DNA of 61,553 nucleotides, the filler included, from Sphacelaria rigidula (taxonomy: Eukaryota): NCBI GenBank assembly GCA_964200075.2. It is 5 parts of 5 records of this genome, joined end to end, with 100 filler letters (N's around TTAATTAATTAA, not from the genome) between each part and the next. Parts side by side here need not be neighbours in the genome. Positions count along the whole stretch, not along the records: positions 36,995 to 49,224 come from CAXNAA020003983.1; 4 more parts are not named here. One strand, given 5' to 3'. The position numbers were made by a program, and so were the translations under genes. The notes below the pieces were generated by a model. That model saw only the letters and a list, made by a program, of their open reading frames with translations, was not told the DNA's origin and made no database searches. Position 1 is the stretch's first letter; each line of letters opens with the position of its first letter. This document shows, piece after piece, positions 12,233 through 57,702 of this stretch.

Positions 12233-12332
12233 NNNNNNNNNNNNNNNNNNNNNNNNNNNNNNNNNNNNNNNNNNNNTTAATTAATTAANNNNNNNNNNNN
12301 NNNNNNNNNNNNNNNNNNNNNNNNNNNNNNNN
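12233..12332. other. Artificial contig spacer (N44-TTAATTAATTAA-N44)
   Basis: 100-nt block containing a six-frame stop linker; the same block occurs four times in the window. Confidence 0.98.
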
Positions 12333-12623: not shown

Positions 12624-15600
12624 CTACACAACCACGTGGTGGTGTACTGTAGATCACCAAACCAACTCATGGAGAAAGCGCCACTATGTAGGTGAGGTGG
12701 CTGACGGGCCGATGCCGGCTGCGGAGGTCTAGGGCGGCTTTCAAAGCTCAGGCGGCGGCGTGCCGAAAAATGAGACAATTTATTTGCCGAGTGTGTGCCG
12801 GCGCTTGAAATCCTACGGAATACAGTCAGTACAGGGGAAAACAACGCTGAACAGGTGCAGACAAAACAGACAGCCCGGATACCGTAAATTTCACGCTGGC
12901 TCGCAGCTCTCAGACACGCTGTCTGAAGAATTTTCAACCGTAGCCTGAGAGTGAGTGACACGAGGCCAACAGAGGTGACTGGCGTGTTCTCTAGCGTATT
13001 TTGTATCTGGACGTGTATCTTGTGCTGTTTGAATCGCAGAGCGTGACGGTTACGCGCATTTTGCTTGTGGGTGAAGAAAAAACTTATCCATCCATGAAAA
13101 AACCCGTTTGCAGACTCTACTGCCTCTACTGCCTGTACAGCACATGGCTGGCCGGTGCGGTCTTTTCAAGACTCCATCCCAAAAATTCGAACGTGTCCGA
13201 CATGCCAACAAGACACCACAAATCTCCCCCATCCTTGGTGCAGCGCTGCCCACACATCCAAAGAACGGTCTCTGCTATCGTGCCTCATCTGTGATCATCG
13301 GTCAATCACGTGGAAGCATCATGACCTGTTCATTTTTACGGGGGAAAAAATAGCGTATTTGAGAATGCTGGTGAGGAAGAGGTTACTCTTGTGTGATAAT
13401 TGGGCGATTGTAGCAGACGAATGCGTACGTGACCTGAGGGCACTTGATGAGTTGACCGTTGAGCAGTAATGTCTAAGGCCGTTTCTTGTCGAATTGTTTT
13501 CGACTCGAGATCGTACGGTGGAATCGAATTTATTCGTACCTGATACGTCCACGGCATCCATGTCCCCAACCATCTGGAAAAATAAACAGCGTGGACCAAT
13601 CAGAAACGAACGAATTCGATTCGACCGCACGTTTCCGTCACAAGAACGATTTGATGAGACACGGCGTAATAATGTCTTACCTCCTTCATTGGCCAATTGT
13701 TTTCTTCTGTCTAAAGTGATGAGGTTTAGATCCGCAACCCGACACGACAGATCCATGGTTATGCTCTTGCTTTCGTTTTTTGCAGATTTTGAGTCTGTCG
13801 TTGAAAGCGTGGTTACGCGAATAGAAACAACAACAATTATTCAAATCGACGTGTAGTTCAGTAATACTCGTCCATTCCGCGATGCCAAAATGTCAGGCAA
13901 GTGCAATGCGGTACCGGGGGAGATATGGATGTGTTGGCTTATTATTATAGACCTAAGAACTTTTGTCGCGAAGAAGGGAGAGGGGAGCTAAAGTGCCACT
14001 AGAAGACAAAGATACATACATTTATGTATTATATGTGTATGTGTAATTGTGAATATTGATATAATTTTTTGGTTGGAAAAAGGGCAATACGATTTCTAAT
14101 TCCTTCACCAATTTTCCATGTCGTGTTTTCGCCCTCTCTTTTTTTATTTCTCGGCGGTTGTTAATTATTGCAAAACCTGTTACTTGTTGTTTCGTCTTGT
14201 GTTGCTTTGTTTTTTCTGCTGAACAGGATTTAGCTCGATTGGCACCAGCATCAGGCGATCAGGCGGGAAAGTGGTTGCCATAACTTCTCAGACACAGGAG
14301 CAGGCGGGCCGAGCCGCGCGGGAGTGGCGGGTGCCGTTTCAGGTGTTCGGCGATCCATCCAACAAGTACATAAAGGAGATGAACAGAAGGTACGACACAG
14401 TACAGTACAGCTCAGGACACCACACGAGCTCGCAACAATCGTCCGAGGAATAGTGTCCCCTTCGCTCCGTCTCGAAAGGGATGCGTGTTGAATACTCAGA
14501 CAACTAAGGCAAACAGCAAATGAGTATCCCCCCCCCCCCCCCCCCCCCCCCAAAACCCCAAAACCCCCCCCCCACCCTCCAACAAAACAAAACACAAAAC
14601 AAGCACCCCAAAACAACAACCAACACAAANNNNNNNNNNTGCCTTCCCATCGCCCACCGCCTCGAAAGGGATGCTTGTTGCCAACTCAAACCACTAAGGC
14701 AAACACAAAATTCGCCACCCCCCCCCCCCCCCCCACCCGAAAAACCGGCGTTCTCCGTCCCGGCTTTGTAGAGATGCAAGACCTCTGACTATGGCATGCA
14801 ACATCACCATGAGTATACCCCCTTCCCCCGTCCCCCGTCCCCGTCCCCGTCCCCGCTTGATGCATTAGACAGTAGGGAGAAAGCGATGGTTGTACTTGGA
14901 GATACATGGTGGCCAGAGACGACGAAACAGGACGGGGATAAGATATGTAAAAGGTTTTTGTGCAATGTGTGAAAGAAACGTATGAGCGCCGGAATGTTGA
15001 AGGTGTCCCTATTAGGAGTAGGAACGGTGCTCCGTCTCGAAAGGGATGCGTGGTCGATGGTCAAACGACTGAGGCAAGCAACACATGAGTACGATCCCGT
15101 CCTCCCTTCCCTTCTTCTTACCCCTGGGAGGATTTGCGGAGCAACGAGAGGTTTGCAACAATTGTTTGTTGACGCGCGCGAGCGGCCGAGCTTTGTACCG
15201 AACCATTGCACGAGGCCCATAGGCGGTCAAGGACTGTGCGCGCGTGTATTTTCTAATCCCCTCTTGGTAGAAGGGTGTAATTATGCGTGAGTAGTGTCTG
15301 TTTGAGGCGTCGGCTGAGGGTGCCTGCCTGGGTGCCAACAGATGCCCGATTAAGAATCGGAGTATGGAGTTGGTATAGCGATCGTCATTGATTTTTAAAC
15401 CTTATTGCGTGTACATCGTCTGCGATACAGGGCTCGATATATACCACACGACACTGGGCTGTAGACATATATACATGCCTTGGGTTTGTTGCACAGCCCA
15501 GTTGATGCTAGGCTCACACAGGTGAGGCAGGATTTTTTTTTTGAAACTGTGTGCGGGACCTCGCTAGCCAGGTCATGATGACCCAAGAAAAATGGTTTAG

Positions 15601-18600
15601 GGCGCTCTAGTATGGTAGCGACCGTTTTTTCACGAGAGCGTCCAAACCTCTCCCAAAAAAAAATGAAGGCTCATTTTTTTTCATTTAGCATACCTCTGTC
15701 GTTCTCCATGCTGAGTTTCAAATCACGATTTTGAGAATTGAGCTGAAAAGTTGAGATGAGAATTGAGCTGAAAAGTTGAGATAAGGCCCAAGAGCAATGC
15801 TCATTTCTCCTCGAAACTCCCCTAAAAACACGAAAAAAATGTTGAAAGCTGTCTGTTTTTTTTCATCATGCACTAGCGGTTCTCCATACCAAATTTCATA
15901 GCACAACTGTCAAAAACAGACGCGATATCCAGATTTAAGGCATCAAGTGTCTCTGCTCGTAATATATTGGTTTTAGTACGGGAAGTTATGTGCGCCATAT
16001 CTCGAGATAAATTACGAATTAGGTGAAGGTGAGGGTATCTATCGTCTCCCCGTGCTCCAGGGGAGGTCCACGTGAAAAATGAATGCATCGTCCGGGGTTT
16101 CATATAGGTATTAGTGTGGACACTATCTCCGTACGGTACAGGAATTACAAGGCATGGGGTTCAACCAACGAGAGAAGAATTGGCCCAGATTTTTAAGCAG
16201 ATGGGCACCTTCCTCTTGATGAGACGATTGGTACGATATGCGGATCACGGCCCAACTCATCTGCGTCGATGAGATATTGCCTTGGGAGCTTGAACCCGTT
16301 TTTTGGCTGACCCAGCTCGTATGAGTGTTTTTGGATAACGGCGCTTTTTACCCTTCCCCCCTCCCCCCTCCTCAATTTTTACATATATATCTTGATCTTT
16401 TGATCTTTTCCACTTCAGAACCTCCCCCAAGAATTGTCCCAAATGCAAGATAATCAGTAGGCTTCGGGCCGAACAGTCTTGGCAGGATGCAGCTCACCCT
16501 TGATGCGACTTGCCGAACACACCACGGCGCGTCACGCTTGGTGATCGAGAGCGAGCGAGGCTGGTCCGGCGAAAACCCGGCGTGCTCCTTCCCCGCTTCG
16601 CAGGGATGCGAGGTCAATAGTCTTATGATTACGGCATGCATGATCATGTGTACACCCCTCCCCCCGTCTCCAAAAAAGTATGTTTCGGGACGGGGGGGAG
16701 TTAGCTTCAGTCCGATGCATAACCGTGATCCTGTTCAAGACAAGATTGAGAGTTTGGCCGTGACAGATGATTCCCATGTGGACTACTTGATTCTCTCGGT
16801 GCTTGTTGTGGTCGTTGCCCAGTTTATTCATATGATTCTGAATGTTGTGATGGTGGTGGTCGTTGGCAGCAGGGACATGTAGTCGTGCCTCACATGCGCC
16901 ATGTATAGCCTTTGAATACATGAAGCATCTGCGCCCCCCGGTGGCAGAGAGCATAATTCACGCTGAGGGTCAGTCCCCGTATGGAGCGCCCGAGAGACAC
17001 AGCACGATCTTGGTACGGAGAGGACGGTAGCGCAATTTTTATAATCGCTGTAGCCACCTGTAGCACGCGGAAATACGCCAAAAGGCAGGTCCGGTAGGAT
17101 TTTACATCGTGGTCCTGCACGATCTATACTCCATTCACCATTATTACGTCCACGAGACCCGAATAATATCACGACTTCATCCATCTGTCGTTTGGTGGTG
17201 GTGCCCATCGTTATTTTTTGTCGTCATTTGCTTCCTTGCCTGCCTACCGATCATGGATGATTTCAAAAACAAGTCTAACGGTGGGTTCTGCGAGAACCTT
17301 CTTGTTTCGGCAGGTGGTTCTAAGTGACTTTTCTCCACGGGTGAACGCTTGTGCTTGTATTTCTCACTCTTCTTGTTTGTTTCTTGCTCCTGTTTTTCTT
17401 CTTATTTTTCTCCTGGTGGTGGACACTATCGCAGGTTCAACATGAACTGCACCATCACCACCAACGACATGGTGACTGATGCCTATCAAAGTGGCATGGC
17501 GCAACCGGCGGTACTAGCCGTCTACTCCGACACGGTGCAAGACACGTCTTCTGTGCTCTTCAGCTGGTCACGATATCAGGTGACAAAACTCAAGGAGACG
17601 GCGATTTTCGGGGAGGGCGGGGCGTACGCATTGGTTGCTCGCCTTGGTCGTTTGACCGTTGACCACGTATCACTTTCGAGACGGAGCACAGTGTTCGGAA
17701 GGGGGGGGACCACCGCCCATGTTCCGTTTCATCAACGTGGACAGTTCAGTAGTTCAGTGCGCAACGCATTGCCGTTTCTACACATGCGTGTCATGTAGGG
17801 TTATAAAAAGCGCCTGCGGAGGTGCGGCAGCGCAAATATTTAGGTCAAATCCCGCGAAGCGCAGGTGCTGGGAGTTGGAGTCTGCGGCTTGCCGCAGAAA
17901 AAAAAATTGGGGCGCACTTTTTCGCCATGGGCGATTTTTTTTTCTGCGGCCCCTTTTTTTCGCCGGGGGTGGGACGTTTTTTTGAAGGGTCTTTTTTGTT
18001 TCGCCGGAGGCGAAATGTTAGTTTTAACAGCCTGTGTCTGCTTTTACTTTGATCCCTCTTGCGTGCAAAGGGAAAATAACTACAAAGCTTTCCTTTTTCA
18101 ACGGGATATCCCAAATTTTGCCGCTCCGCGAGGCCCCTCCGGGGGGGGGAGGGGTCTGTGCGGCCGGCGCCCTCCGGGGGCCCTCCCGGGGAGCCGCATG
18201 TTGCCTTCGGCTCCCATCTGCGCAAGCGCAGGCGGAGCCTGCGGAGATTTTGTAACCCTGGTGTCATGTGCTCTTTTTGTCGCACACACATCACCGTGAC
18301 TTCACCGACCCCTCCCTGACGGCACTGTCTATGGTGTGAAGCCTGTTCGATTCACTAGTTTCGTATTTAACCCTATCCGCTATCCTGTGAGGAGTCTATT
18401 CACCCGCTCAGATCAATTCACATGATAGCATTCGAAGCCCATGCGCTCACGTTTTTTTCGTGACGTGATTTTTCATTCTGTTTATGTTCAAATCGAGGTA
18501 TGGACTTTGATCATGTGGGTCACTTTTGTTTTTCGGAGCCAAATCCGTAGCACCGGCGGAGTACCTTCAGGCGGAGCTGTTGACAATGACGATGCCAGTT

Positions 18601-20630
18601 ATCCCGACCACTTCCTGTATTGTCCACCTCCGTGACCGTAATTATTCAGTCGGGCGTCACAAGTGTTGCAGCCACCCCGATGAGTGACAGGGTGAAGAAA
18701 GCGTTCATCGATAGGACCGACAAGGTACAGCGATCTAAACGTCACCCCTCGTGTTCTCCCCCTGCCGCCCTTTGAAACCCTCGTATCCCGTCCCTCTGTC
18801 TGTCTCTTTCCTCTCCACCGTTTGTCCCTTCCCTTGATGGCCGTCACACACATACTCGCGTACACCGGCACACGCCCGGAACTACAAAAACCGAATCGCC
18901 TGGAGCAGACAATCGGCTCGATGCGGCACGACGCCGTGTTCGAAAACATCCTAAGAGCGCTGTCCACAAAGCAAAACCCACGACCCAACCCATCTCCTAC
19001 GCGACCGCCCTTAACCCCAGCTACCGTCCCTCCGCCTCCCATCGGCGCTGGGGAGAGCGCGGCCCCCTCGGGCTACGGTGTCCGCGCTCGACTAGCGACA
19101 TCCGCATCGCCCCCGATCGGCCGTGTCGCGCCGCGCGGCATCGGGGGACCTGCGGGAGTATCTCGCGATGTGTCAAGGATTATGGAGTCTCCTTCGGGAG
19201 AAACGATACGGTGGGGATACCCCGAGTCGGCAGCAGAACGGACACCTTATCGGGCTTCGCGACAACCCAGGAGCGCTCCCCGGACTACGCCGAGAAACGG
19301 TTTGCGACATGTTCCCCCTCGTGCGACGGCAGTCCCGTCGTCGACCACAAACGGGGAGGCGTACCAGGAGCACCAGCACCAGTACAGTGATCACGAGCAA
19401 ACTTCTTCGCTCTCTGTACGACGGCATAGGCTTTCGACGCCACGGAACAGCGGCCAAAGACGGGGGGCGATGCAAGCTGCTGTGGATGGGTTCGGGGTCG
19501 AAGCCAACGAGAGGTTGCCAACATTTGCCAGCAACGGCGGGGACGGGGCCGCAGTGGTGGCGAGAGAACCACAGCACGCACAACAAGACCGACGACCAGT
19601 TCCGATTTCTCGCTCAGTTTCGCCAATCCACCACCAGACCACCAACACTACGGTGGCAGGAAAAGTCATCCCTCGAGACTCGGCATACTCGAGCAGCGGG
19701 GGTGGCAGTTATACCAGCGATGGCGGGCGATTTTCAAGTGGCGGCGGCGGTGGGTACGGTAATGACGACGGGCGACGCGACCACAAAGAACAGTATGCGC
19801 AGCACGATCGGCAGCAGGCGCAGCAGCAGGTGGCGCCGGCATATGGAGTGTCGGGGCGTGTGCCTGGACCAGTGACGCACAGACGGTTATGGCCTTTCGG
19901 ATCAAGCACCGGCGGTACGAAGTCGTTCGCGGATGGCTCCAATCAAAGTAAGGACAGCAATGGCAGCAAAGGCAGAGACATTTCCACCGGGCGAGCGGCG
20001 GTTGGCGCTGCGACTACGAATCAACGATGGTCAACGAACGATGCCGGAGGTGCCGCGACGGCGGGCTACGGCAGGACCGCACGCCCTGTTGAACCCGGCA
20101 TCCCCGATCACGCCACAGTTGGATACGGTAGGGCAACAAGTCCTGTCGATGCCGACAGAAACAGTGGAAACGGTACAGGGTATCGCGTTGGTGGCAGCGG
20201 CGGCGGTGTCTCTAGTGACGAGGTCAGGAGACGACGAAGAATGATGGATTACCGTCGACGTTCATCACCCCCACAACCTCACCACCACAAGCAACAGCAA
20301 CAGCAACAGCAGGGGCAAGATGGCGGGATATGGTCGAAGCGATCGTCCTCGCCAAGCCCGGCGCTACAAGAGAGCGATCCCGTGGAGGGAGGGGCCAGGC
20401 CAACTTCGGCTCCGCCGTTTACACGTGACGGTGATGATGCTGGCGACGGTACTGTCATCCGAATAAGAGGGGGTGGGCTCGGGCAGGCTGGGCGACGGCC
20501 TGTGTCGATGCGTTGGAGCCTGGCTACGAATGGAGTGGGCACGTACGCGGAGCCGGTTCATGCGAATGGTGCGGGGGAAGGGGGAAACCGAATCATGAGT
20601 GATGGCATTAAAGTAGATGACATGGAATGA
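12624..20630 (+). CDS. 5'-partial gene: thioredoxin-fold redoxin (AhpC/TSA, peroxiredoxin-like 2 type) domain plus a ~550-aa low-complexity C-terminal tail
   Basis: Exons 12624-12691, 13141-13154, 14227-14389, 17435-17579, 18650-18724 and 18909-20630 have AG/GT borders and matching phases (2187 nt, 728 aa plus stop). The join reads HVVVYCRSPNQLMEKAPLCSTWLAGFSSIGTSIRRSGGKVVAITSQ..WRVPFQVFGDPSN..RRFNM..QPAVLAV..VLFSW..AVFENILRAL, then an R/S/G/P/Q-rich tail. The first two small exons are less certain than the last four. Confidence 0.8.
14464..15092 (+). mobile_element. Cluster of 3'-end copies of the C-tract-associated LINE (65-nt unit copies plus one ~240-bp copy)
   Basis: Units at ~14464-14527 and ~14657-14712 (the latter in low-quality sequence beside a 10-N gap). 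A longer copy at ~14855-15092 encodes DALDSREKAMVVLGDTWWP..DKICKRFLC and aligns with 52870-53092. Each copy is followed by a C-rich tract. Confidence 0.75.
15590..16323 (+). repeat. Copy of the GAGCTGGGCCAGCC-ended repeat family (intronic)
   Basis: Aligns to ~9830-10415 and to the reverse complement of 23826-24563. Ends GGCTGACCCAGCTCGTATG, the inverse of the family terminus. Confidence 0.75.
17624..17688 (-). mobile_element. 65-nt LINE-3'-end element
   Basis: The reverse complement is TGCTCCGTCTCGAAAGTGATACGTGGTCAACGGTCAAACGACCAAGGCGAGCAACCAATGCGTAC. It is flanked by similar C-rich direct repeats (..CCCCCCCTTCCGAA / ..CCGCCCTCCCCGAA). Confidence 0.8.
17796..18260. mobile_element. hAT-like MITE (465 bp)
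   Basis: TIR TAGGGTTATAAAA ... TTTTGTAACCCTG, with a perfect 8-bp TSD GTGTCATG at 17788-17795 and 18261-18268. Confidence 0.88.
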
Positions 20631-24563: not shown

Positions 24564-24663
24564 NNNNNNNNNNNNNNNNNNNNNNNNNNNNNNNNNNNNN
24601 NNNNNNNTTAATTAATTAANNNNNNNNNNNNNNNNNNNNNNNNNNNNNNNNNNNNNNNNNNNN
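24564..24663. other. Artificial contig spacer
   Basis: N44-TTAATTAATTAA-N44. Confidence 0.98.
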
Positions 24664-36894: not shown

Positions 36895-36994
36895 NNNNNN
36901 NNNNNNNNNNNNNNNNNNNNNNNNNNNNNNNNNNNNNNTTAATTAATTAANNNNNNNNNNNNNNNNNNNNNNNNNNNNNNNNNNNNNNNNNNNN
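36895..36994. other. Artificial contig spacer
   Basis: N44-TTAATTAATTAA-N44. Confidence 0.98.
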
Positions 36995-38379: not shown

Positions 38380-40329
38380 GGGAGTACTACTGCTTGCTGT
38401 CAACTATCACACCCTCAGCCTGTAAATCTGCAACCCCAGCGGTGTGCAAGCCCCGCCATCCATGTTGGCGCTTATTTAGACTTCCCCTCTTGAACTGGTC
38501 CCGCCGGCAGTGACGATTGGGCTGCAGGAGCTGGAGCAGAGGGCTGGAGCAGCAACATGATATCCGCACAGTTAGCACCCCCTTGCGTTTCGTCCCCTGG
38601 GAAGACAGCCCGTGTGAGCGCCGGACTGTCGCTGTCCCCCCGCTGACCTTGGACCCGCTGCTGCTGCTGCTGCTGTGGCGGTGGCGGCGGCAACTTCGCT
38701 TGCCCACCTGACGCACTCACCGTGGCCGTAGGTGTGCTCTGTTTTTTATAGTTCTTCTCGTAGTGGCCCTTATCGCCACACTCGGAACAACTTGCGTAGC
38801 TGGGACTAGGTTCGTGAGGCTACCTGGAGCTAGAACCCCAACTACTCACTGCGGCAGCCGCAGTCCCTGCGTCGGCCTGTGATGTTAGTTTTTTCGAACC
38901 TTGTGAACCGCTCTTTTGCTTAAGTTGTGCTTGCTGGCGGGCTTTTTGTCAACCTCTTCTACAGTCTTCCATGTATCCGCCAAGTCATGAGCTACCTCAT
39001 ACATCACTGTCGGGCTCTCTTTTCAGTCCCCTCTTATATAGAGTATATTTTAAATTTTATTTTTGAAGTCTGGTGGGGTCAGGCCGGCGAGCATAGCTCT
39101 GATAATGATGTGTGCCAGACCAGCCTTGAAAGTATGGCCAGATTCAAGGAGAACACACCCCGCATCCGCATTTTCCGCAGACAACTGTTGTAGTGAACTC
39201 TATTGCTCTTCTACTCGACCCATTGCAGTTGACTCAGACCGTGCGGCAAGGGTCTTTTTCACGCCTGCTGCAGCTTCGCAAGGATCGATTTCCCCATCGC
39301 TCCAGCATTCCGCGTGGCGTGCAATCCCTCGCTGCACTTCGTCTCGGTCGAGTGACAGCAAATCAAAGATGATGCCAAACATGCAATTCTGAATGTGCTT
39401 GGGCACCAACTCTTGCATGGTCGAGAGTGCACACTCAACCGTCCGGCCGTTATTACTCCCTGCCACCGCCCTCTCTTAGTCCCGATACTTTTGATAAAAG
39501 CGTCTGGAGACCTGTTCACTGAACAAGCGTCCATATTCGTGCTCTTTCGACACTTTCTACGATAGCCCTCCCCAAAAACCAGCTCAAAAGTGTCACGAAG
39601 AAAATGGCGATACAGCGCCCGATGTTTGGGTTCTGGCTGCATGAAGCGCTTCATAGTGGCGACATTGGCTAGAACGAATCCCAGCGTGGGAAATCCCAGC
39701 TGCTCGTTGTGCTCGGCTTTTCCATTTCGATTTACGTGAAAAATTTGCCTCCCAAAACCATGTACTTTTTGGGTGGGGGCTATCGTAGAAAGTGTCTTTC
39801 AAGAATCCACCTAGGGTCAACTCGGTTACTTTACACTTCTCATCGTCAACCTTCTCGCTGGTGCCACCTCCCCTACGCGATACCATCCCTCCAACACCCT
39901 TCTGTCACCGCAGTCGCCTTGGCTTGCGCCCTTCTCTCCACCGCTTCCTCCTCCTGTTATTCAATGTGGGCGTCCTCGGTTTCTGCAGACTGTGAGCGCG
40001 GTGCGGCTTCAGGTTAACCCAATCAAGAAACCGGCAAGTTCCCTGAGCAAACGTTTATTGTAGACTTTTCTGAAATCAGAACAAGATCACAGTGCTGCTC
40101 CCAAGGCTTCCTCCCTGCAAAGGACTCCATAGACTTCAAGACTCAAGGAGTTACACGAACAGCCGTCTTCGTTGAACCCAGAAGTGATTCCTATGTCATT
40201 CTCCTCGTAAACACAATATGCTACGCATTCAATAATCATCCTCCAACTTATTGTCACAAGATCCAGCTGATATCCACCTGCTACGGTACTTACTCCTCAT
40301 GCCAGAGGTTCTACCATACTTTCTCTACA
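38380..40329 (-). mobile_element. 5' part of an LTR retrotransposon (probably Ty3/gypsy): 5' LTR 40329-40059, leader and decayed gag
   Basis: 271-bp LTR TGTAGAG...GTCTACA. Gag-like peptide STMQELVPKHIQNCMFGIIF..MLAGLTPPDFKNKI. Zinc knuckle CSECGDKGHYEKNY (CX2CX4HX4C with the last Cys mutated TGT>TAT) at 38789-38748. In-frame stops are present. Confidence 0.78.
39549..39796. mobile_element. 248-bp MITE with a 20-bp perfect TIR and 4-bp TSD (Sola-like by TSD length), inserted in gag
   Basis: TTTC|GACACTTTCTACGATAGCCC ... GGGCTATCGTAGAAAGTGTC|TTTC. A second copy lies at 42560-42888. Confidence 0.85.
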
Positions 40330-42559: not shown

Positions 42560-42888
42560 GACACTTTCTACGATAGCCCCCCCCTAAAACCTGCTCCGTC
42601 TCAAAAGGGATGCGTGGTCAATGGTCAAACGACTAAGGCAAGCAACAAATGAGTACGCTCTCCCCCAAAACCAGCTCAAAAGTGTCACTAAGAAAATGGT
42701 CATACAGCGCCTGATATTTGAGTTCAGGCTGCATGACGCGCCTTATGTTGGCGACATTGGCTACAATGAATCCAAGCGTGGGAATTCCCAACCTCTCGTT
42801 GTGCTCAGCTTTTCCCATTTCGATTTACGTGAAAAACAGTTCTCCCGGAACCATGTACTTTTGGGGGGAAGCAATCGAAGAAAGTGTC
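42560..42888. mobile_element. Second copy of the GACACTTTC MITE, carrying a 65-nt LINE-3'-end insertion at 42592-42656
   Basis: Colinear with 39549-39796 except for the 65-nt insert and a 16-bp duplication (42576-42591 / 42657-42672). Flanks are TTTT/TTTT. Confidence 0.85.
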
Positions 42889-43639
42889 TTTTTTGCACCG
42901 TTGACGGTCAATAACACCCCCAAATGAACGAGGTACTTACTCCGTATCACCCCGGTAACACCAATTGAGAACTGTGCTCTGAGAACGACTTGCTTCTCCT
43001 TTTCATGTCTATCGACGCTAGGACTTTTAAGCGCCAAGGACGGGAACTAAAAGAGAAAATTCAGGAAAGTACCCAAACACGAAAATAGCCCAAGCGAGCG
43101 CTGCATAGCACAGGCGGAGGTGAAACAATTCCGATTACTCTCCCTAATGTTTCCACGAACTCCTACCTTTTATTTTCACCTACTCATTGCGCTAGAGTCG
43201 AAAAGAAATGTGTTCTAGACCAATGGCGATCAATAACACCTCCTGTCAATTCAGCTCGGAAGTCGTTAAATATTGAGCGCAGAGACGATTTTTTCGAGAT
43301 GTGGAGCGGATGCCTAGTATATCCCGACTCTCAAACGTTGGGATCAACCGCTCGCTGGGATGAGCGGTAGCACGCGAAAGAAACATTGACGCCGACTCCG
43401 GGAAAAGGACAAAAGACGATAGTGGGATTTCAAGGGAGAGTCGATTGGCCGCGTGTGCGGCAGAAGTGTCATGTGATTATGTGTTTTCACGTACACAAGT
43501 AAGTAGTGTTTACCGCTGTGTTCCGTGTTTCCGGTCAGGCGAGTTGTGCTACAAATAACTCGTTTTCCGATAGTAACTCAGCTGTTAGGTACATGCAACA
43601 TAAGAGCAGTACACACACTCTGATCTGATAAGTGGTACA

Positions 43640-49224: not shown

Positions 49225-49324
49225 NNNNNNNNNNNNNNNNNNNNNNNNNNNNNNNNNNNNNNNNNNNNTTAATTAATTAANNNNNNNNNNNNNNNNNNNN
49301 NNNNNNNNNNNNNNNNNNNNNNNN
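49225..49324. other. Artificial contig spacer
   Basis: N44-TTAATTAATTAA-N44. Confidence 0.98.
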
Positions 49325-50455: not shown

Positions 50456-50520
50456 TGCTCCGTCTCGGAAGGGATGCGTGGTCAATGATCAAACGACTAA
50501 GGCAAGCAACAAATTAGTAC
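50456..50520 (+). mobile_element. 65-nt LINE-3'-end element with a 17-bp TSD
   Basis: TGCTCCGTCTCGGAAGGGATG...AAATTAGTAC lies between TCCTCCCCATGTTATAT (50439-50455) and GCCCCCCCGTGTTATAT (50521-50537). Confidence 0.85.
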
Positions 50521-51209
50521 GCCCCCCCGTGTTATATTTCACTTACCTTTCGCGAAGAACTATCGTTTTCGCGCGTGGCATGGCGTGCCGTGTATCACAA
50601 GCATTTTGTTGTACTGTATTTCGTATGGCGCGCCACAGTGCTCCCTCAGATGAGTTTCGTCCACAAATCTCCGTAGACATGCGTTCGTGTATGTAATGGG
50701 TAAAAACTGTGCTGTTATTTTTGGCGGACAGCGTACCAATAGCATGTCAAGAGGAGATGATGACGGCATTCCCAGGGTTGACAGATCTGGGGCATCAGTA
50801 TATGATGGAGAGGTTGTAATACTTGTTTTTCGAGGATCGTCGTCAGATGTAGGATGGTTTGTTACGTCCTCCCCCCAAGGAAAGAGGATCACCATATACT
50901 TCTCTGATCACACAAAGTTGAAATATATAATCTGTGATAGATCTGTCTCTTCTATCAACATTGGTCGATTCTAGGACAGTCAGGTAAATATGATGCACGA
51001 ATGAAACAAATACATTTACTGCCTCGATAACCCAAAATTATAATATATTTTCTGCGATCGATTTTTTTCGATCAACGTTTGCCGATCCTAGGACACTCGA
51101 GTAAAAGTGACATACTATATGAATATATATATATCGGAAAAGGTACATCTATGAATCGAGTACCGATCACTAGATTACGACCCTCCGCCATTAACCAGGG
51201 TGGGCGGAG

Positions 51210-53092
51210 TATGCTGGAGCGAGGAAAGAGGTGAAAAGGATGGTGGAAAAGAAATAGAAGGGAACATGGAAAGATGAAGTTAGCAAAATAAATAACGATT
51301 TCGTGGGGTGGATATAGGCAAGGATGAAAGGGATACCCGTCTAACAGGCAAGAGAAGCAGACAAGAGTATCACCTCACTTAGGGCACAGAACGGTGAAAT
51401 GGTTCATAGTTTAAAGGGGAAGACATAATTAATAGTACAGCACCACCGACTTTAAGAATGCCGACAACTAACAACGGGTTGATATGAAATTTGAGAAAGA
51501 AGTCAACTCGTGGGCAGAGGCAGATGTAGAGGCATCAAACGAGAAGATGATGGTTCGAAAGAAGGAGAGTTCACAAGAGACAAAGTGAAGGAGTGTGTAG
51601 CTACGCTAACCAACAGAAGGGCAGCAGGGGCAGACGAAATAGCCAATGAATCAGGTATGGGGAAGAGGGAACGATTGCCGTCATGGTTATTTTGTATAGT
51701 TTCATATGGGAAGACGAGTACACAGGCGAGAAGTGGAGAGAAGGAGTAGTAATGAAACTTTCAAGAAAGGAGGCAAGGCTGAACCAGGGAATGATGGAGG
51801 GATACGCTACTTAGCACCGTAGGGAAAGTATTCTGTGAGAGTTTGAACTATAGAATGGGAACGATGTTGGAGATGGAAGAACAATCGACGAGGGGTGGGC
51901 AGGTTTTAGACCAAACCGTAGCTACGTAGGCCGCGTGTGTAGGTGAGACTACTCAAGTTGAGGAAGACGGCGGGCTGACAACGTACTGCTTTTTTTGTAG
52001 ATATAACCGAAGGTCTATGACGGAGTATGGAGAAATGGGCCGTGGAAAAATATGTGGGAAAAGGGAATCAGAGGAAAGATATAAAAAAGGGCGAACAAGA
52101 TGACAAAATGTGCGCTTCTATACCAAAATCAAGTAGTTAAGAGTTTGCACGTTTCAAGCTCACGTCATCTCACAAGCGCGCAAAACTTCACGCCATTTTT
52201 AGGAGTTGGACCCTGAAACTTTGTATGGGTCATCACACTACTTTCGATAGATGAGATTCTTCATTCTTTAATTTTTTGCCGTTTTTCGGGGATCCGACGG
52301 GATCTAAGCCTCGTCGAAATCCCTGGGACCTCCGAAAAACGGCGGAAATAGTCAAAAAGCAAAGGACTCTTGGACTTCCAAAGTTGCGTAGTTACCCATA
52401 GCAAAGTTGTACGAAGTTTCAGGTTTCTGACTCCTCAAAACAGGGTGAAGTTTTGTAGATGAGTGTTTTTGGTTGATGCGTGCGAACCAGCCTATGGGAG
52501 AAAACCAAGACGAGAGATATCCGTGGGTGAATGTCGCGGGTACAAGGCAAGAGTAAGATACATGATGAAAATAAGGGAAAAATAAGCGCCAACACGGGAA
52601 GTGGACGAGGAAAAGCACCTGAAGATATATAGGGTATTGAAGGAGGACAATGGGGGTGAAAACATACTTGCACGGCCAAATGAAGTATGCGGAGAAGTCG
52701 AAAGTGCGATATTGGGTTGGGGACCTGAACCTGCCAGATAGAATTAGATGCACATATTTGCCTCTGTCGCAAAGAAACAGAGAGCAGAACTCGGGCAGAA
52801 TATGAAGCATACAAGAAGGAACGGGACGTGCTAGGGGGGGAAATGCGGGGCGTGAACGAAGGTGGCATGAAATCTTCTGTAAACGATGGCTATACTACGA
52901 GATGAATGATGGCCACGAATGGATAGCGTGATAAGGGTAAGAAATGTAGAGGTTTCTGTGTAGCGTGCGGAAAAAGCGCAGGTTTTTGCCCAAAGGTCGG
53001 AGGCGTCTCAATAAGGAGTTCAAAACGGTGCTGGGTCTCGCAAGGGGTGCGTGGTCAACGGCCACATGACTAGGGCAAACGGCAAATGAGTG
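51210..53092 (+). mobile_element. Decayed LINE (RTE/RTE-X-like RT, C-terminal Cys-rich region) whose 3' end is the 65-nt element
   Basis: EFTRDKVKECVATLTNRRAAGADEIANE, LLSTVGKVFC, GFRPNRS and YCFFVDI.KVYDGVWRNG. It ends ..GGTGCTGGGTCTCGCAAGGGGTGCGTGGTCAACGGCCACATGACTAGGGCAAACGGCAAATGAGTGC followed by GCCCCCGCCCC. A foldback insert (arms ~52180-52228 / 52410-52456) interrupts it. Confidence 0.82.
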
Positions 53093-53648
53093 CGCCCCCG
53101 CCCCTCTCCATGAACCCGTCCTTTTCACAGTCACTCAGGGTCTAGGTGTTGAAGGTGTTGGTGTTGGGACAGGATTACCACCTGTATTACACTCGTTCCA
53201 CAGTGTCGGTGGCAAAATATGATAGCAACAAGCTCTGAGAATTGCAGCCGGTGAACAGATGTACCCATTTTTATCTTCGGATACATGTGTTTTGCTACAT
53301 TATGACGCATGTAATGATCACAGCTTTCGCCTGGGCTGTACTTGTTAGACATGCGTCACAGCCCCCTCCTAGCATAGCTGCTATCGATTGGGGTCAACTA
53401 TGCCATTTGACACGCCCGTACAGTCTGAGTCATGCGAGCACATCGCCTATACTGTAAGCAAGTGAACGAGAGCACTACCTTGTCTGTCGTCGTTCCTTTG
53501 CTCAGCACGCGTCAAAAGGGAACACTTGCAGGCGCTGAAGAAAAAGGAAAAGCTAACCGTGGTCGCGTGAAGCCGATCCACGTCGTGTGACGTCGATGGC
53601 ACAGGCTCTCGTACAAAAAGTTTAAGCATTCCCCTCCTCCTCCCCCGA

Positions 53649-53713
53649 TGCTCCGTCTCGAAAGGGATGTATGATCAATGGTCAAACGACTAAGGCAAGC
53701 AACAAACTAGTAC
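53649..53713 (+). mobile_element. 65-nt LINE-3'-end element upstream of the PPR gene
   Basis: TGCTCCGTCTCGAAAGGGATG...AAACTAGTAC, flanked by CCCCTCCTCCTCCCCCGA and GCTCCCACCCCTCCCCCAA. Confidence 0.85.
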
Positions 53714-54090
53714 GCTCCCACCCCTCCCCCAAGTATGGGTCACGTGAGCGTATTGCTGTCCGGCAGTCGGGTGGACTGGTTGAGTGGTGGATTATTGTGC
53801 AACCAAGGAATTCAGGGTCAACGAGGTAACAAGGGGGAAAACAGGTCGGGCCTCAGGGTGACCGTGGAGTTTCAGTCGTATCTAGCGTGCTAGTTCGTGA
53901 ACCTATATCGCGTGTAGTACCGTGAAGCAGAGACTTTGCTAGCAACGGGTTTTTGATCGTTTTTTTGACGACTTGTGTTGTGTTGTGCCGTGAATTCACT
54001 GCCCTCCTCCTTTTGTGTAATTTTGTGCGGTGCCTGGTTTTGTCGTTTTTCGCCACCCTTCCTTAGATCGGGTTACATGCGCTGAGTACT

Positions 54091-57000
54091 ATGGTCATTT
54101 GCGGTGTCACGATCGCTGCAAACGCTTGCATGGCGATACCGCAATCATCGCGTGGGACGAGTAGGGCCTTTGCCGCTCGACTATCTCCAACTGGTGGATT
54201 TTACACTGGTTCCTCGACAAATGTCAGCCAAAGGCGAGCTCGCACAGACGTAGCGAGCAGTCACAAGGGAGATCAGGGTGGCGGTTGGCACGGCAGGCAG
54301 CGAGGAGGCGGGAGGGGACATGGACGACGGCCATTCGGCGATATTTCGAATGTTCGACACATCCAAAATTCCTATATGAATCGGTTGAAGCAGGCGAAGT
54401 TCCGACGAGATTGGAGAATGGGGAAGAAAATCTTGATGGAAGCTCTGGCTCGCCACGACGCACGGGCAGTTGTGAATGTGTTTATTTTCGGTGCCGCGCT
54501 TGGCGTTGCTGGAAAAAGTGGTGAATGGGAAGAAGCTGTAGAGTTATTGGATTATATGTGGACGGCAGGAAGGGTGCGTCCTGATAAGATGTGCTACGAC
54601 TCGGCAATTATGGCATGCGGGGCCAGTGGGCAAGGAGAGCAGGGTATCTTGCTTTTGAGGGAGATGCAAACGCAGGGCATCAATCCGGATGTTAAAACCT
54701 ACAACTTTGTCCTCACGGCGTGCGGGAACGGTGAGCAGTGGCAGCAGGCGGTGTCATTTTTGAGAGAGATGAAGTGGAATGGCATTGCCCCGGATGTAGT
54801 AACATACAACTCGGTCATCAAGGCATGTAAACCTGGCGGACAATGGGAGCAGGCTGTGTCTCTCTTGAGGGAAATGCAAGACGTGGGGCTAGCCCCGGAT
54901 GTAAGAACCTACAGCTCCGCCATCACAGCATGTGGAACCGGTGGACAGTGGGAGGAGGCTTTATCACTTTTGAGGGAGATGCAGAAAAAAAGTATAGCCC
55001 CTAACGTCAGAACGTACACTTCGGCCATAACGGCATGCGGGAAGGGTGGGCGATGGAAGGAAGCTGTGTCACTTCTGAGAGAGATGGAGGCGATGAATAT
55101 CACCCCGAATGTCATAACATACACCTCCGTCATCACAGCATGCGGGAAGGGGGATCAATGGGAGGAGGCTCTTTCCCTTTTGAGAGAGATGCGAACGTTG
55201 GATATTGTACCAAATGTCATAACCTACAGCTCGGCAATCACGGCATGCGGAAACAGCGGGCGATGGGAGGAGGCTTTGCTACTATTAAAAGAGGTGGAGA
55301 CCGTGGGTATTGCACCACATATAGGACCCTACACCGCGGCCATATCAGCATGCGGGAACAGTGGCCAATGGAGGCGAGCTGTGTCGCTTTTGAGAAAGAT
55401 GCCAATGATGGGCATCGCTACGGATGTCAGAACTTACAATACAGCCATCAAAGCATGCGGCGACGGTGGACAATGGGAGACGGCTGTGTCACTTCTAAGG
55501 GAGATGCAGGCGAATGGTATTGCCCCAGATGTAATTACCTACAACACGCTCATCAAGGTATGCGGAGACAGTGGACAGTGGGAGGAGGCTCTGTCACTTT
55601 TTCGGGAAATGGAAAAGGTGAGCCTGTTTCCACGTGTGAGAACTTACAACGCAGCCATCACGGCATGCGGAGACGGTGGGCAATGGAAGGAGGCTGTATT
55701 GCTTTTGCGGGAGATGCAAACAAAACGTGTTGCTCCGGATGTGATATCGTACAGCTCGACCATCAAGGCATGCGGGACCGGTGGACGCTGGGAAGAGGCG
55801 TTATCACTTTTGAGGGAGATGGAGGCGGTGGGTGTCGCCCCGAACCTGATTTCATACACCTCAGCCATTATGGCATGTGGGGACGGTGGGCAATGGAAAG
55901 AGGCGTTGGCACTGTTGAGGGAAACGCAGGAGAAGAACATTGCACCGAATGTCATAACCTACAGTTCGGCGATTACGGCATGCGGAAATAGTGGACGATG
56001 GGAGGAGGCTTTGTCATTGTTGAGAGAGATGGAGACAGTGGGTGTTACTCCGGATGTGGTACCCTACATCTCGACTATCATGGCATGCGGGAATGGTGGA
56101 CAGTGGAAGCGAGCTGTGTCACTTTTGAGAGAGATGCCGACGGTGGGCATTGCCACGGACGTCGTGACCTACAACACAGCCATTAAGGCATGCGGGGACA
56201 GTGGAAAATGGCAGGAGGCCTTATCTCTGCTGACGGAGATGCAGAGAAAGAATATCTTCCCAGATGTCATCACCTACAACACCGTCATTACAGCGTGTGG
56301 AGGTGGTGGGCAGAGGGAAGAGGCCTTATCACTCTTACGAGAGATGCCGAGGGTGGGGGTATCCCCAAATGTTGTGACTTTCAACGCAGCCATCACAGCC
56401 TGCGGGGAGGATGGACAATGGGAGCAAGCTTTATCACTTTTGCGTGAGATGCAAACGAACTGCATTGCTCCGGATGTAATTACCTTCAACGCTGTCATCA
56501 AGGCGTGCGGAGATGGTGGGCAATTGGACGAGGCCCTGTCACTTCTAAGGGAAATGCAGACAGTGGGTGTGGCCGCGAACGGAAGAACCTACAGCACGGC
56601 CATTACGGCCTGCGGGAGTTGTGGGCAATGGGAAAAGGCGTTGTCACTTTTGAGAGAGATGGAGGCGGTGGGTATCGCCCCGGATGTCATATCGTACAGC
56701 TCGGCCATCACAGCATGCGGGGATGGTGGGCAATTCGAGGAGGCAATGTTACTTTTTAGAGAGATGCAAGCGAAAAACGTCACACCGAATCTTATAACTT
56801 ACAGCTCGGCCATTAGTGCATGCGGGAACAGTGGGCAATGGGAGGAGGCATTGTCACTTTTGAAGGAGATGGAGGCGGTTAATATTGCCCCAAATGCGGT
56901 ACCCTACACTGCGGCCATTGCGTCGTGCGGGGACAGTGGGCAGTGGGAGCCGGCCATGTCACTCTTGAGAAAAATGCCGGCAGTGGGCATCGCCACGAAC

Positions 57001-57702
57001 GTGGTGACCTACAACGCGGCCATTAAGGCGTGCGGAGATGGTGGGCAATGGGAGCAGGCCGTATCACTTCTGAGGGAAATGCAGGCGAATGATATTCCCC
57101 CAGATGTGATAACCTATAACACGGTTATCAAGGCCTGCGGGGACGGGGGACAATGGGAGAAGGCTGTGTCACTTTTGAGAGAGATGCACACAGCAGGCGT
57201 TTCCCGGGATGCAAGAACCTATTCCGCGGCCATAACAGCATGCGGGGACGGCGGAGCATGGGAAGAGGCTGTGTCACTTTTTAGGGAAGTAGAGGCGGTA
57301 GGTATTTCCCCGGATGTGATAACGTACACCTCGGCTATCACGGCATGCGGGGACAGCGGGCAATGGGAGGAGGCGTTGTCACTACTGAGGGAAATGCAGA
57401 CAAACAATATAGCCCCGAATGTAGTTACCTTCAGCTCCGCCATTAGGGCATGCGGGAACGGTGGACAATGGGAGGAGGCATCATCACTCCTAAGGGAGAT
57501 GGAGTCAGTGGGTATCGTCCCGAATGCAAGAACGTACACGTCGGTCATCACGGCATACGGGGATGGTGGTCAATGGGAGAAGGCTTTGTCACTTTTGAGA
57601 GAAATGCAGACCGTGGATATCGCCCCAGACGTGAGGACGTACAACGCGGTTATCAAGGCATTTGTGGGGATTAGTAGGCGGAGCCACATCTGTCAATCTT
57701 GA
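54091..57702 (+). CDS. P-class pentatricopeptide repeat (PPR) protein, 1203 aa, 30 complete tandem repeats
   Basis: Consensus VxTYxxAIxACGxGGQWEEAxSLLREMxxxGIxP[DN] recurs with a strict 105-nt period from 54586 (repeat 1, 36 aa, starts at 54478). Repeat 31 begins at 57631 and is broken by a frameshift. A pyrimidine tract plus AG at 54066 lies in frame 24 nt upstream, so an upstream exon is possible. Confidence 0.96.
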   Translation: MVICGVTIAANACMAIPQSSRGTSRAFAARLSPTGGFYTGSSTNVSQRRARTDVASSHKGDQGGGWHGRQRGGGRGHGRRPFGDISNVRHIQNSYMNRLKQAKFRRDWRMGKKILMEALARHDARAVVNVFIFGAALGVAGKSGEWEEAVELLDYMWTAGRVRPDKMCYDSAIMACGASGQGEQGILLLREMQTQGINPDVKTYNFVLTACGNGEQWQQAVSFLREMKWNGIAPDVVTYNSVIKACKPGGQWEQAVSLLREMQDVGLAPDVRTYSSAITACGTGGQWEEALSLLREMQKKSIAPNVRTYTSAITACGKGGRWKEAVSLLREMEAMNITPNVITYTSVITACGKGDQWEEALSLLREMRTLDIVPNVITYSSAITACGNSGRWEEALLLLKEVETVGIAPHIGPYTAAISACGNSGQWRRAVSLLRKMPMMGIATDVRTYNTAIKACGDGGQWETAVSLLREMQANGIAPDVITYNTLIKVCGDSGQWEEALSLFREMEKVSLFPRVRTYNAAITACGDGGQWKEAVLLLREMQTKRVAPDVISYSSTIKACGTGGRWEEALSLLREMEAVGVAPNLISYTSAIMACGDGGQWKEALALLRETQEKNIAPNVITYSSAITACGNSGRWEEALSLLREMETVGVTPDVVPYISTIMACGNGGQWKRAVSLLREMPTVGIATDVVTYNTAIKACGDSGKWQEALSLLTEMQRKNIFPDVITYNTVITACGGGGQREEALSLLREMPRVGVSPNVVTFNAAITACGEDGQWEQALSLLREMQTNCIAPDVITFNAVIKACGDGGQLDEALSLLREMQTVGVAANGRTYSTAITACGSCGQWEKALSLLREMEAVGIAPDVISYSSAITACGDGGQFEEAMLLFREMQAKNVTPNLITYSSAISACGNSGQWEEALSLLKEMEAVNIAPNAVPYTAAIASCGDSGQWEPAMSLLRKMPAVGIATNVVTYNAAIKACGDGGQWEQAVSLLREMQANDIPPDVITYNTVIKACGDGGQWEKAVSLLREMHTAGVSRDARTYSAAITACGDGGAWEEAVSLFREVEAVGISPDVITYTSAITACGDSGQWEEALSLLREMQTNNIAPNVVTFSSAIRACGNGGQWEEASSLLREMESVGIVPNARTYTSVITAYGDGGQWEKALSLLREMQTVDIAPDVRTYNAVIKAFVGISRRSHICQS

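Follow-up and report, generated by a model that had tools for sequence, protein, structure and literature searches.

The window, by which we mean the whole 61,553-nt stretch of Sphacelaria rigidula DNA analysed here (assembly GCA_964200075.2), joins five unrelated contigs through N-linkers with an all-frame stop spacer (12233-12332, 24564-24663, 36895-36994 and 49225-49324). It carries repeated copies of a 65-nt unit, which a preliminary description had read as a minimal retroelement in its own right. A BLAST search with 42592-42656 returned the unit at all eight places named there, namely 42592, 15028, 50456, 53649, 17688 (minus strand), 14464, 53029 and 14657, together with a related copy near 16602 that had not been listed. 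Its presence in three contigs was borne out, as the copies are separated by N-linkers. The features concerned are as follows, where family A is the LINE that ends in the unit, family B is a second family with a related tail, and TSD stands for target-site duplication.

14464-14717, plus strand: two degenerate tail copies (14464 and 14657) flanking a 10-N gap, from BLAST
14738-14815, plus strand: degenerate family B tail copy
14854-15093, plus strand: 5'-truncated 240-nt LINE copy ending in the unit, from its LINE match
16439-16654, plus strand: truncated family B copy of 211 nt with the shared tail fold, ending A(C)n
17623-17692, minus strand: tail-only copy of 65-69 nt, from BLAST and LINE match
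39549-39797, plus strand: MITE, empty copy of 249 bp, with terminal inverted repeats (TIRs) ending in the targeted C-run; the empty site is 39565-39580
42560-42889, plus strand: MITE, filled copy
42576-42591, plus strand: left TSD copy (C-run and AAAACC)
42592-42657, plus strand: tail-only LINE copy (65 nt and a terminal G) in the C-run of the MITE TIR, from BLAST and the filled/empty alignment
42658-42672, plus strand: C-rich tail and right TSD copy
50456-50521, plus strand: tail-only copy with a clear TSD, from BLAST
51197-53094, plus strand: old degraded LINE copy, with an RT fragment (51197-52113) and a C-terminal part (52494-53091) ending in the unit
53646-53714, plus strand: tail-only copy of 65-68 nt, from BLAST and LINE match

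Two further reading frames lie on the plus strand of the window: an uninterrupted 1,211-aa ORF of PPR repeats at 54067-57702 (PPR_2, E 1e-262), and a 644-aa stop-to-stop low-complexity frame at 18696-20630, which is probably a host exon.

The isolated copies had been given identical 65-nt boundaries. They do share an end zone, but it is a mode rather than a single base, and the copies at 17688 and 53649 match the LINE over 69 and 68 nt. The absence of poly(A) was confirmed, and the element carries a (C)n tail instead. The further claim, that at 15028 and 53029 the unit forms the 3' end of a longer RT-coding LINE, holds for the second place, where RT fragments (51197-52113) lie upstream, but not for the first, a 240-nt C-terminal fragment that contains no RT. 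In the old copy at 51197-53094, about 380 bp of unrelated sequence (52114-52493) stands in place of part of the LINE body. Across the 244-Mb genome the unit's 3' 26-mer has 2,955 exact matches and its reversed control none, and many tail copies stand at contig ends. A viral contig collection gave 0 matches to the tail, and a metagenome contig collection gave three, all LINE-linked. An Rfam covariance-model search with the unit and four family B loci returned nothing near gathering scores, so a known ribozyme or structured RNA family was rejected for the unit; a hammerhead or HDV-like reading was dropped after inspection by eye for the known motifs.

A LINE with an APE endonuclease and a reverse transcriptase ends in the unit, which makes up its last 65 nt, or 66 if the G that follows is counted. 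When 30 loci were fetched with the RT fragment of the window as query, the RT-bearing loci ran on into the unit wherever the locus was long enough, and their consensus contained endonuclease, RT and a C-terminal CCHC motif in that order. These are collinear over at least 3.3 kb in recovered copies, none of which is intact. The RT domain was recognized in one locus (Pfam RVT_1, E 5e-21), and the N-terminal APE endonuclease in a fragment of another (Exo_endo_phos, E 7.5e-05, just under the Pfam cut-off at 23 vs 24.5 bits). The LINE ORF reads through the unit, with its stop 4 nt before the unit's end; therefore, the unit is coding sequence and the LINE has almost no 3' UTR. TSDs, a series of 5' truncations and a fixed 3' end, as in APE-type non-LTR elements, were all found, and in 32/77 copies the TSD exceeded the 95th percentile of a shuffled-pair null. 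Protein matches to the RT included 14 named proteins of Ectocarpus sp. CCAP 1310/34, at 45-67% identity among the best, and two Ectocarpus proteins also match the C-terminal part that the tail encodes. A young lineage of the LINE (30 loci) can be told by a tandem duplication, about 20 nt long, located about 120-140 nt from the 3' end. Inverted tail pieces lie directly 5' of three copies and resemble twin-priming inversions.

The filled and empty MITE pair proved real: the sister copies align, the unit sits inside the TIR C-run, and the C-run with AAAACC is duplicated. Among the loci collected, 19 matches to the MITE end were scored empty and five filled, although three of the 19 turned out to be filled copies truncated where the contig ends. 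C-runs are present in the empty MITE copies, as had been expected of a true target, which indicates that the C-run predates the insertion. This 249-bp MITE is abundant, and its TIR C-runs have been hit independently by LINE tails of varied length and by family B, in the two copies of the window and at six other loci. Targeting of C-tracts above background was supported by the left flanks, in which the frequency of C is 0.65-0.73 at -9 to -14 vs 0.20-0.33 at -25 to -35. TSDs of 10-22 bp above a shuffled-pair null occur in 32/77 copies, most of them beginning with a C-run present on both sides, and these TSDs support the proposed target-primed reverse transcription (TPRT).

Every copy had been said to be followed by a C-run, mostly starting GC. 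The C-run is there, but its first base is the element's own. G follows the unit at a frequency of 0.88 in the 77 usable copies, and the next two bases are C at 0.95 and 0.95. At the same place family B has A in 60/70 copies, including one within the same MITE site, where the target has G, so that this base belongs to the element. The right C-tract was longer than the left in 15 of the 22 copies scored, equal in one and shorter in six, which means that the RNA contributes C's. Both families also stack in tandem, with new copies entering the C-tail of older ones and repeating the same TSD (six loci). Repeats of the TTAGGG type adjoin the 5' junction of one copy and the 3' flank of another; these may be additions of a telomere-like kind, or the copies may have inserted close to the end of a chromosome.

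The distribution of 5' ends was obtained from 90 copies picked by the 3' 26-mer alone, of which 77 were usable after ten at contig ends and three at gaps had been dropped. A smooth distribution had been named beforehand as the sign of ordinary truncation; the histogram is not smooth and has a sharp mode, with 48 ends at 59-71 nt (26 of them at 64-66), 13 at 26-56 and 16 at 83-620. Nested exact matches counted genome-wide by length from the 3' end fall from 3,518 at ≥60 nt to 2,342 at ≥65, 465 at ≥71 and 314 at ≥77, giving retentions of 0.67, 0.20 and 0.68 across successive steps of 5-6 nt. In copies longer than 71 nt the ends form a continuous series from 72 to >750 nt (62 usable of 69), with a weak cluster at 80-88. 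Among older copies met incidentally, in a set that includes some family B cross-hits, 16/51 end at 61-69. Four public runs, from organisms A-D, supplied contigs of presumed type that also cover the tail, and loose 5' ends after C-runs fall at 15028-15030 in A, B and C; the mode is thus seen outside this assembly as well. An independent family should have a fixed 5' end; here the mode is sharp, but it has continuous tails on both sides. The short class is thus a sharp mode on a truncation continuum. A periodicity of 20-21 nt in the ends (45, 65 and 85), judged informally, came to nothing beyond the weak cluster at 80-88. Ribosome-footprint spacing from the stop codon was rejected as well, because the expected offsets do not fit and the non-coding family B clusters too.

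The real non-autonomous partner of the LINE is family B, not the 65-mer. Family B is about 510 nt long, has no LINE body upstream, shares its tail with the LINE and ends A(C)n; its 3' motif has 2,038 exact matches in the genome. Its 5' ends, usable in 61 of 70 copies, lie at 27-56 nt in 25, at 90-107 in 14, at 297-306 in ten and at ≥495 in seven. In the clusters near 96 and 302 nt the alleles are mixed just as they are in full-length copies, so these too are recurrent ends. In the last hairpin of family B the loop is highly variable and the stem is kept (16439-16654 and 70 further loci).

The folded tail of the preliminary description was supported by the predicted fold and by differences between the families that avoid its stems. 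The prediction consists of a closing stem in which GTGCTC pairs with GAGTAC, a hairpin with a tetraloop, and a longer arm, and its stability against shuffles is unremarkable (z of -1.1, -1.05 and +0.1 for three copies). With the structure predicted from family A alone and a single pair of consensus sequences compared, families A and B differ at 11/24 predicted unpaired positions and at 1/42 paired positions, the latter a change of U-G to C-G (Fisher p 2e-5). Coding constraint is unlikely to lie behind this conservation, as most of the differences change amino acids in the ORF frame. In an RNA starting at 66 nt the first six bases are predicted to be paired with a probability of 0.94, in the top 4% of 285 start sites, and folding of the cDNA at 65 nt is also in the top 5%. 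The family B cluster at 302 nt lies 4 nt before a predicted stem foot, in the top 1% of start sites, and the A cluster at 80-88 and the B cluster near 96 nt are not at strongly predicted stem feet. Ends at the shared closing stem were found in 45/63 family A copies that reach it, vs 1/36 of family B. The closing stem alone therefore does not set the 5' end, since A stops there and B does not.

The reading of the 65-mer as a separate minimal partner was not supported, for its alleles are common to long copies and the young lineage has templates of >150 nt. Between positions 8 and 39 no allele was private to short copies (48 short and 19 long copies compared). The T39 variant is enriched in short copies, not private to them. 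In 22 short copies with no adjacent TSD, a search for 5' transduction found no distant TSD (one was at 11 nt), and secondary masters with 5' transduction were accordingly rejected at 0/22. Taken together, the lack of short-private variants and of 5' transduction means that a separate 65-nt element is not supported. T39 copies are younger than the others (divergence 1.4% vs 4.0%), and LINE sequence lies upstream of 38/525 of them vs 427/1,817 others; 14/19 short T39 copies sampled are identical over positions 8-38. This skew to short copies is the best evidence for short templates, and a short master would also give it. However, T39 also occurs in longer copies: those of 71-123 nt share 95-99% identity with the consensus, a LINE copy of at least 720 nt in a marine metagenome carries T39, and it is the majority allele in the runs of organisms B-D. 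The upstream marker of the young lineage was found in copies reaching about 155 to >234 nt (two cases >214 nt). T39 ends at 117-123 had pointed to a capped master about 120 nt long, an idea rejected because that marker extends further upstream. In 19/30 of the young long copies a contig end or a gap interrupts the tail, so that their count is biased low. From these allele comparisons, we conclude that the short class probably derives from longer RNAs.

Considering all the above results, the best explanation, to which we assign a probability of about 68%, is that the 65-nt class represents a recurrent 5' end of longer LINE-derived RNAs, inserted by TPRT at C-runs with the tail fold as recognition signal. 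The unit would then be the 3'-terminal recognition fold of an RTE-X-like brown-algal LINE, likened to RTE-X by library descriptions and protein matches. In the plausible model that follows from established TPRT, the LINE protein would bind the tail fold and nick the G-rich strand at a C-run; the C-tail would anneal to the freed G-rich 3' end and prime cDNA synthesis by C:G pairing, and a second nick about 10-22 bp away would make the TSD. Before insertion, the RNA may be trimmed or cut back to the protein-protected fold, and the RT would run off its physical end. Alternatively, the RT may terminate at the same place during synthesis. As the RT meets a hairpin from its 3' side, ends at the 5' feet would point to RNA trimmed back to a protected fold, and the single extra bases at some 5' junctions fit run-off from a physical end. 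Within the best explanation, trimming of the RNA is the most likely cause of the mode, with about an even chance of being correct. Against the explanation stand the family B copies that run past the shared stem, the A 80-88 and B 96 clusters away from strongly predicted stem feet, the high rank of cDNA folding at 65 nt, the ordinary stability of the fold and the skew of T39 to short copies. Most LINE insertions stop no more than a few bases from a single place, the 5' foot of the closing stem, and the partner has two fixed stops elsewhere; such stops allow RNA trimming and RT drop-off to be told apart, and the 66-nt fold overlapping an ORF is a small candidate for a LINE recognition signal.

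A different origin of the short copies, which we consider unlikely, is that the tail unit propagates itself, its fold and C-run being cut from any transcript, including host introns, so that promoterless short copies act as templates. The sharp 5'-end mode is what such a unit would produce, as is a young T39 class strongly skewed to short copies and largely identical over positions 8-38, and the same 5' boundary with an upstream C-run recurs in contigs of organisms A, B and C. The Drosophila suffix also offers a precedent, F-element RNA being cut by RNAi where the suffix begins (PMC1868783). Against this, no variant is private to the short copies, T39 is found in long copies and in other organisms, none of the 22 copies showed a 5' transduction, the skew is in part an assembly artefact, and family B has the same fold but no end class there. 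If this reading were true, brown-algal RTE-X RNAs would be processed before insertion at set structural boundaries; the 66-nt fold with its genomically encoded C-run would serve as a template of its own, promoterless tail copies in their thousands could seed new ones, and a minimal retroposon would be defined by RNA processing and primed by C:G pairing without poly(A).

Still less probable is a discrete SINE-like family of 65 nt that has a master locus to itself and is transcribed from the first base of the unit by a promoter, external or internal. The 26 of 77 ends at 64-66 nt and the young T39 burst would agree with it, but the ends are spread over 59-71 and continue on both sides, alleles are common to long copies, and in place of the Pol III-derived head of a SINE the unit is LINE coding sequence with no Rfam match over it. 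It is hardly credible that ascertainment or the fragmented assembly created the peak as an artefact, for although many matches are at contig ends (13/90 were dropped) and 19/30 young long copies are interrupted, the choice of copies depended on nothing but their 3' 26 nt, 48/90 would still be in the peak if all 13 dropped copies were counted long, a TSD above the null threshold lies next to the 5' end in 25/48 short copies, and the peak recurs in incidental copies and independent runs. For annotation, the thousands of short copies belong under LINE tails, not as a new SINE.

The preliminary description knew of no LINE and partner pair with a C-tract target in brown algae, and had itself held that an existing annotation would count against novelty. 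The Ectocarpus TE library already lists the same anatomy (PMC12477816, supplementary file 1). In that library (Dinatale et al., 2025; PMC12477816), RTEX-1/2_Ec32 are entered at 5.5-5.9 kb with a single EN-RT ORF, '(C)n 3'' and a C-rich TSD; RTEX-N1_Ec32 (607/604 bp) has a '60 bp 3' end 83%' to the LINEs, can lie in tandem and has a C-rich TSD; and RTEX-N2_Ec32 is a non-autonomous partner of 188 bp, also with a C-rich TSD. Other families of the same library end differently, RTE with (CAA)n and CRE with (CA)n (PMC12477816). Saccharina, too, has a family that goes by the name RTEX-1 (PMC4421812). The LINE tail is therefore of a kind already annotated in Ectocarpus, and the C-targeting system is not new. 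The term 'C-rich' is absent from the main text of PMC12477816, whose supplement alone records the C-target; among the papers found, the (C)n tail and C-run target appear only as table notes in this one brown-algal paper, and we found no tested mechanism. In the literature searched, which had few subscription papers, nothing else relevant came up on LINEs with a poly-C tail or on hotspots of truncation, and a sharp 5'-end mode at the foot of a tail fold was not found. What appears to be new, as far as that literature goes, is that the 5'-end mode is sharp, recurs across species and falls at a tail both structured and coding, together with the discrete end classes in the partner family.

Compared with these systems, the LINE described here agrees with RTEX-1/2_Ec32 in a putative single EN-RT ORF, its (C)n 3' end, C-rich TSD and thousands of copies, the two being set side by side by description and protein matches. 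It differs in belonging to another genome, and the Ectocarpus text and table entries compared make no mention of a fold, an ORF-overlapping tail or a 65-nt 5'-end mode. RTEX-N1/N2_Ec32 are likewise non-autonomous, with a tail of about 60 bp in common with the LINE, a C-rich TSD and tandem copies, a description that family B fits with its length of about 510 nt and its stacking. In contrast, they have 5' heads of their own where the 65-mer has none, and end clusters such as those at 96 and 302 nt do not appear in their table notes. In RTE-clade elements, the TSD likewise opens with bases that match the repeat ending the RNA, and it has been proposed that their pairing aids priming (PMC6007223); however, the tails in that clade are microsatellites rich in T or A, preceded upstream by a T-stretch, whereas here a C homopolymer starts the TSD. 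The short copies of the Drosophila suffix, the 3' end of the F element, also consist of LINE coding 3' end with no Pol III promoter and are also found on the full LINE, but the suffix ends in poly(A), is reported to be transcribed independently and contains a weak internal promoter (PMC1868783), while the tail here is (C)n. Of known cases in which copies consist of a tail alone and a cut falls at their edge, the Drosophila suffix comes nearest (PMC1868783).
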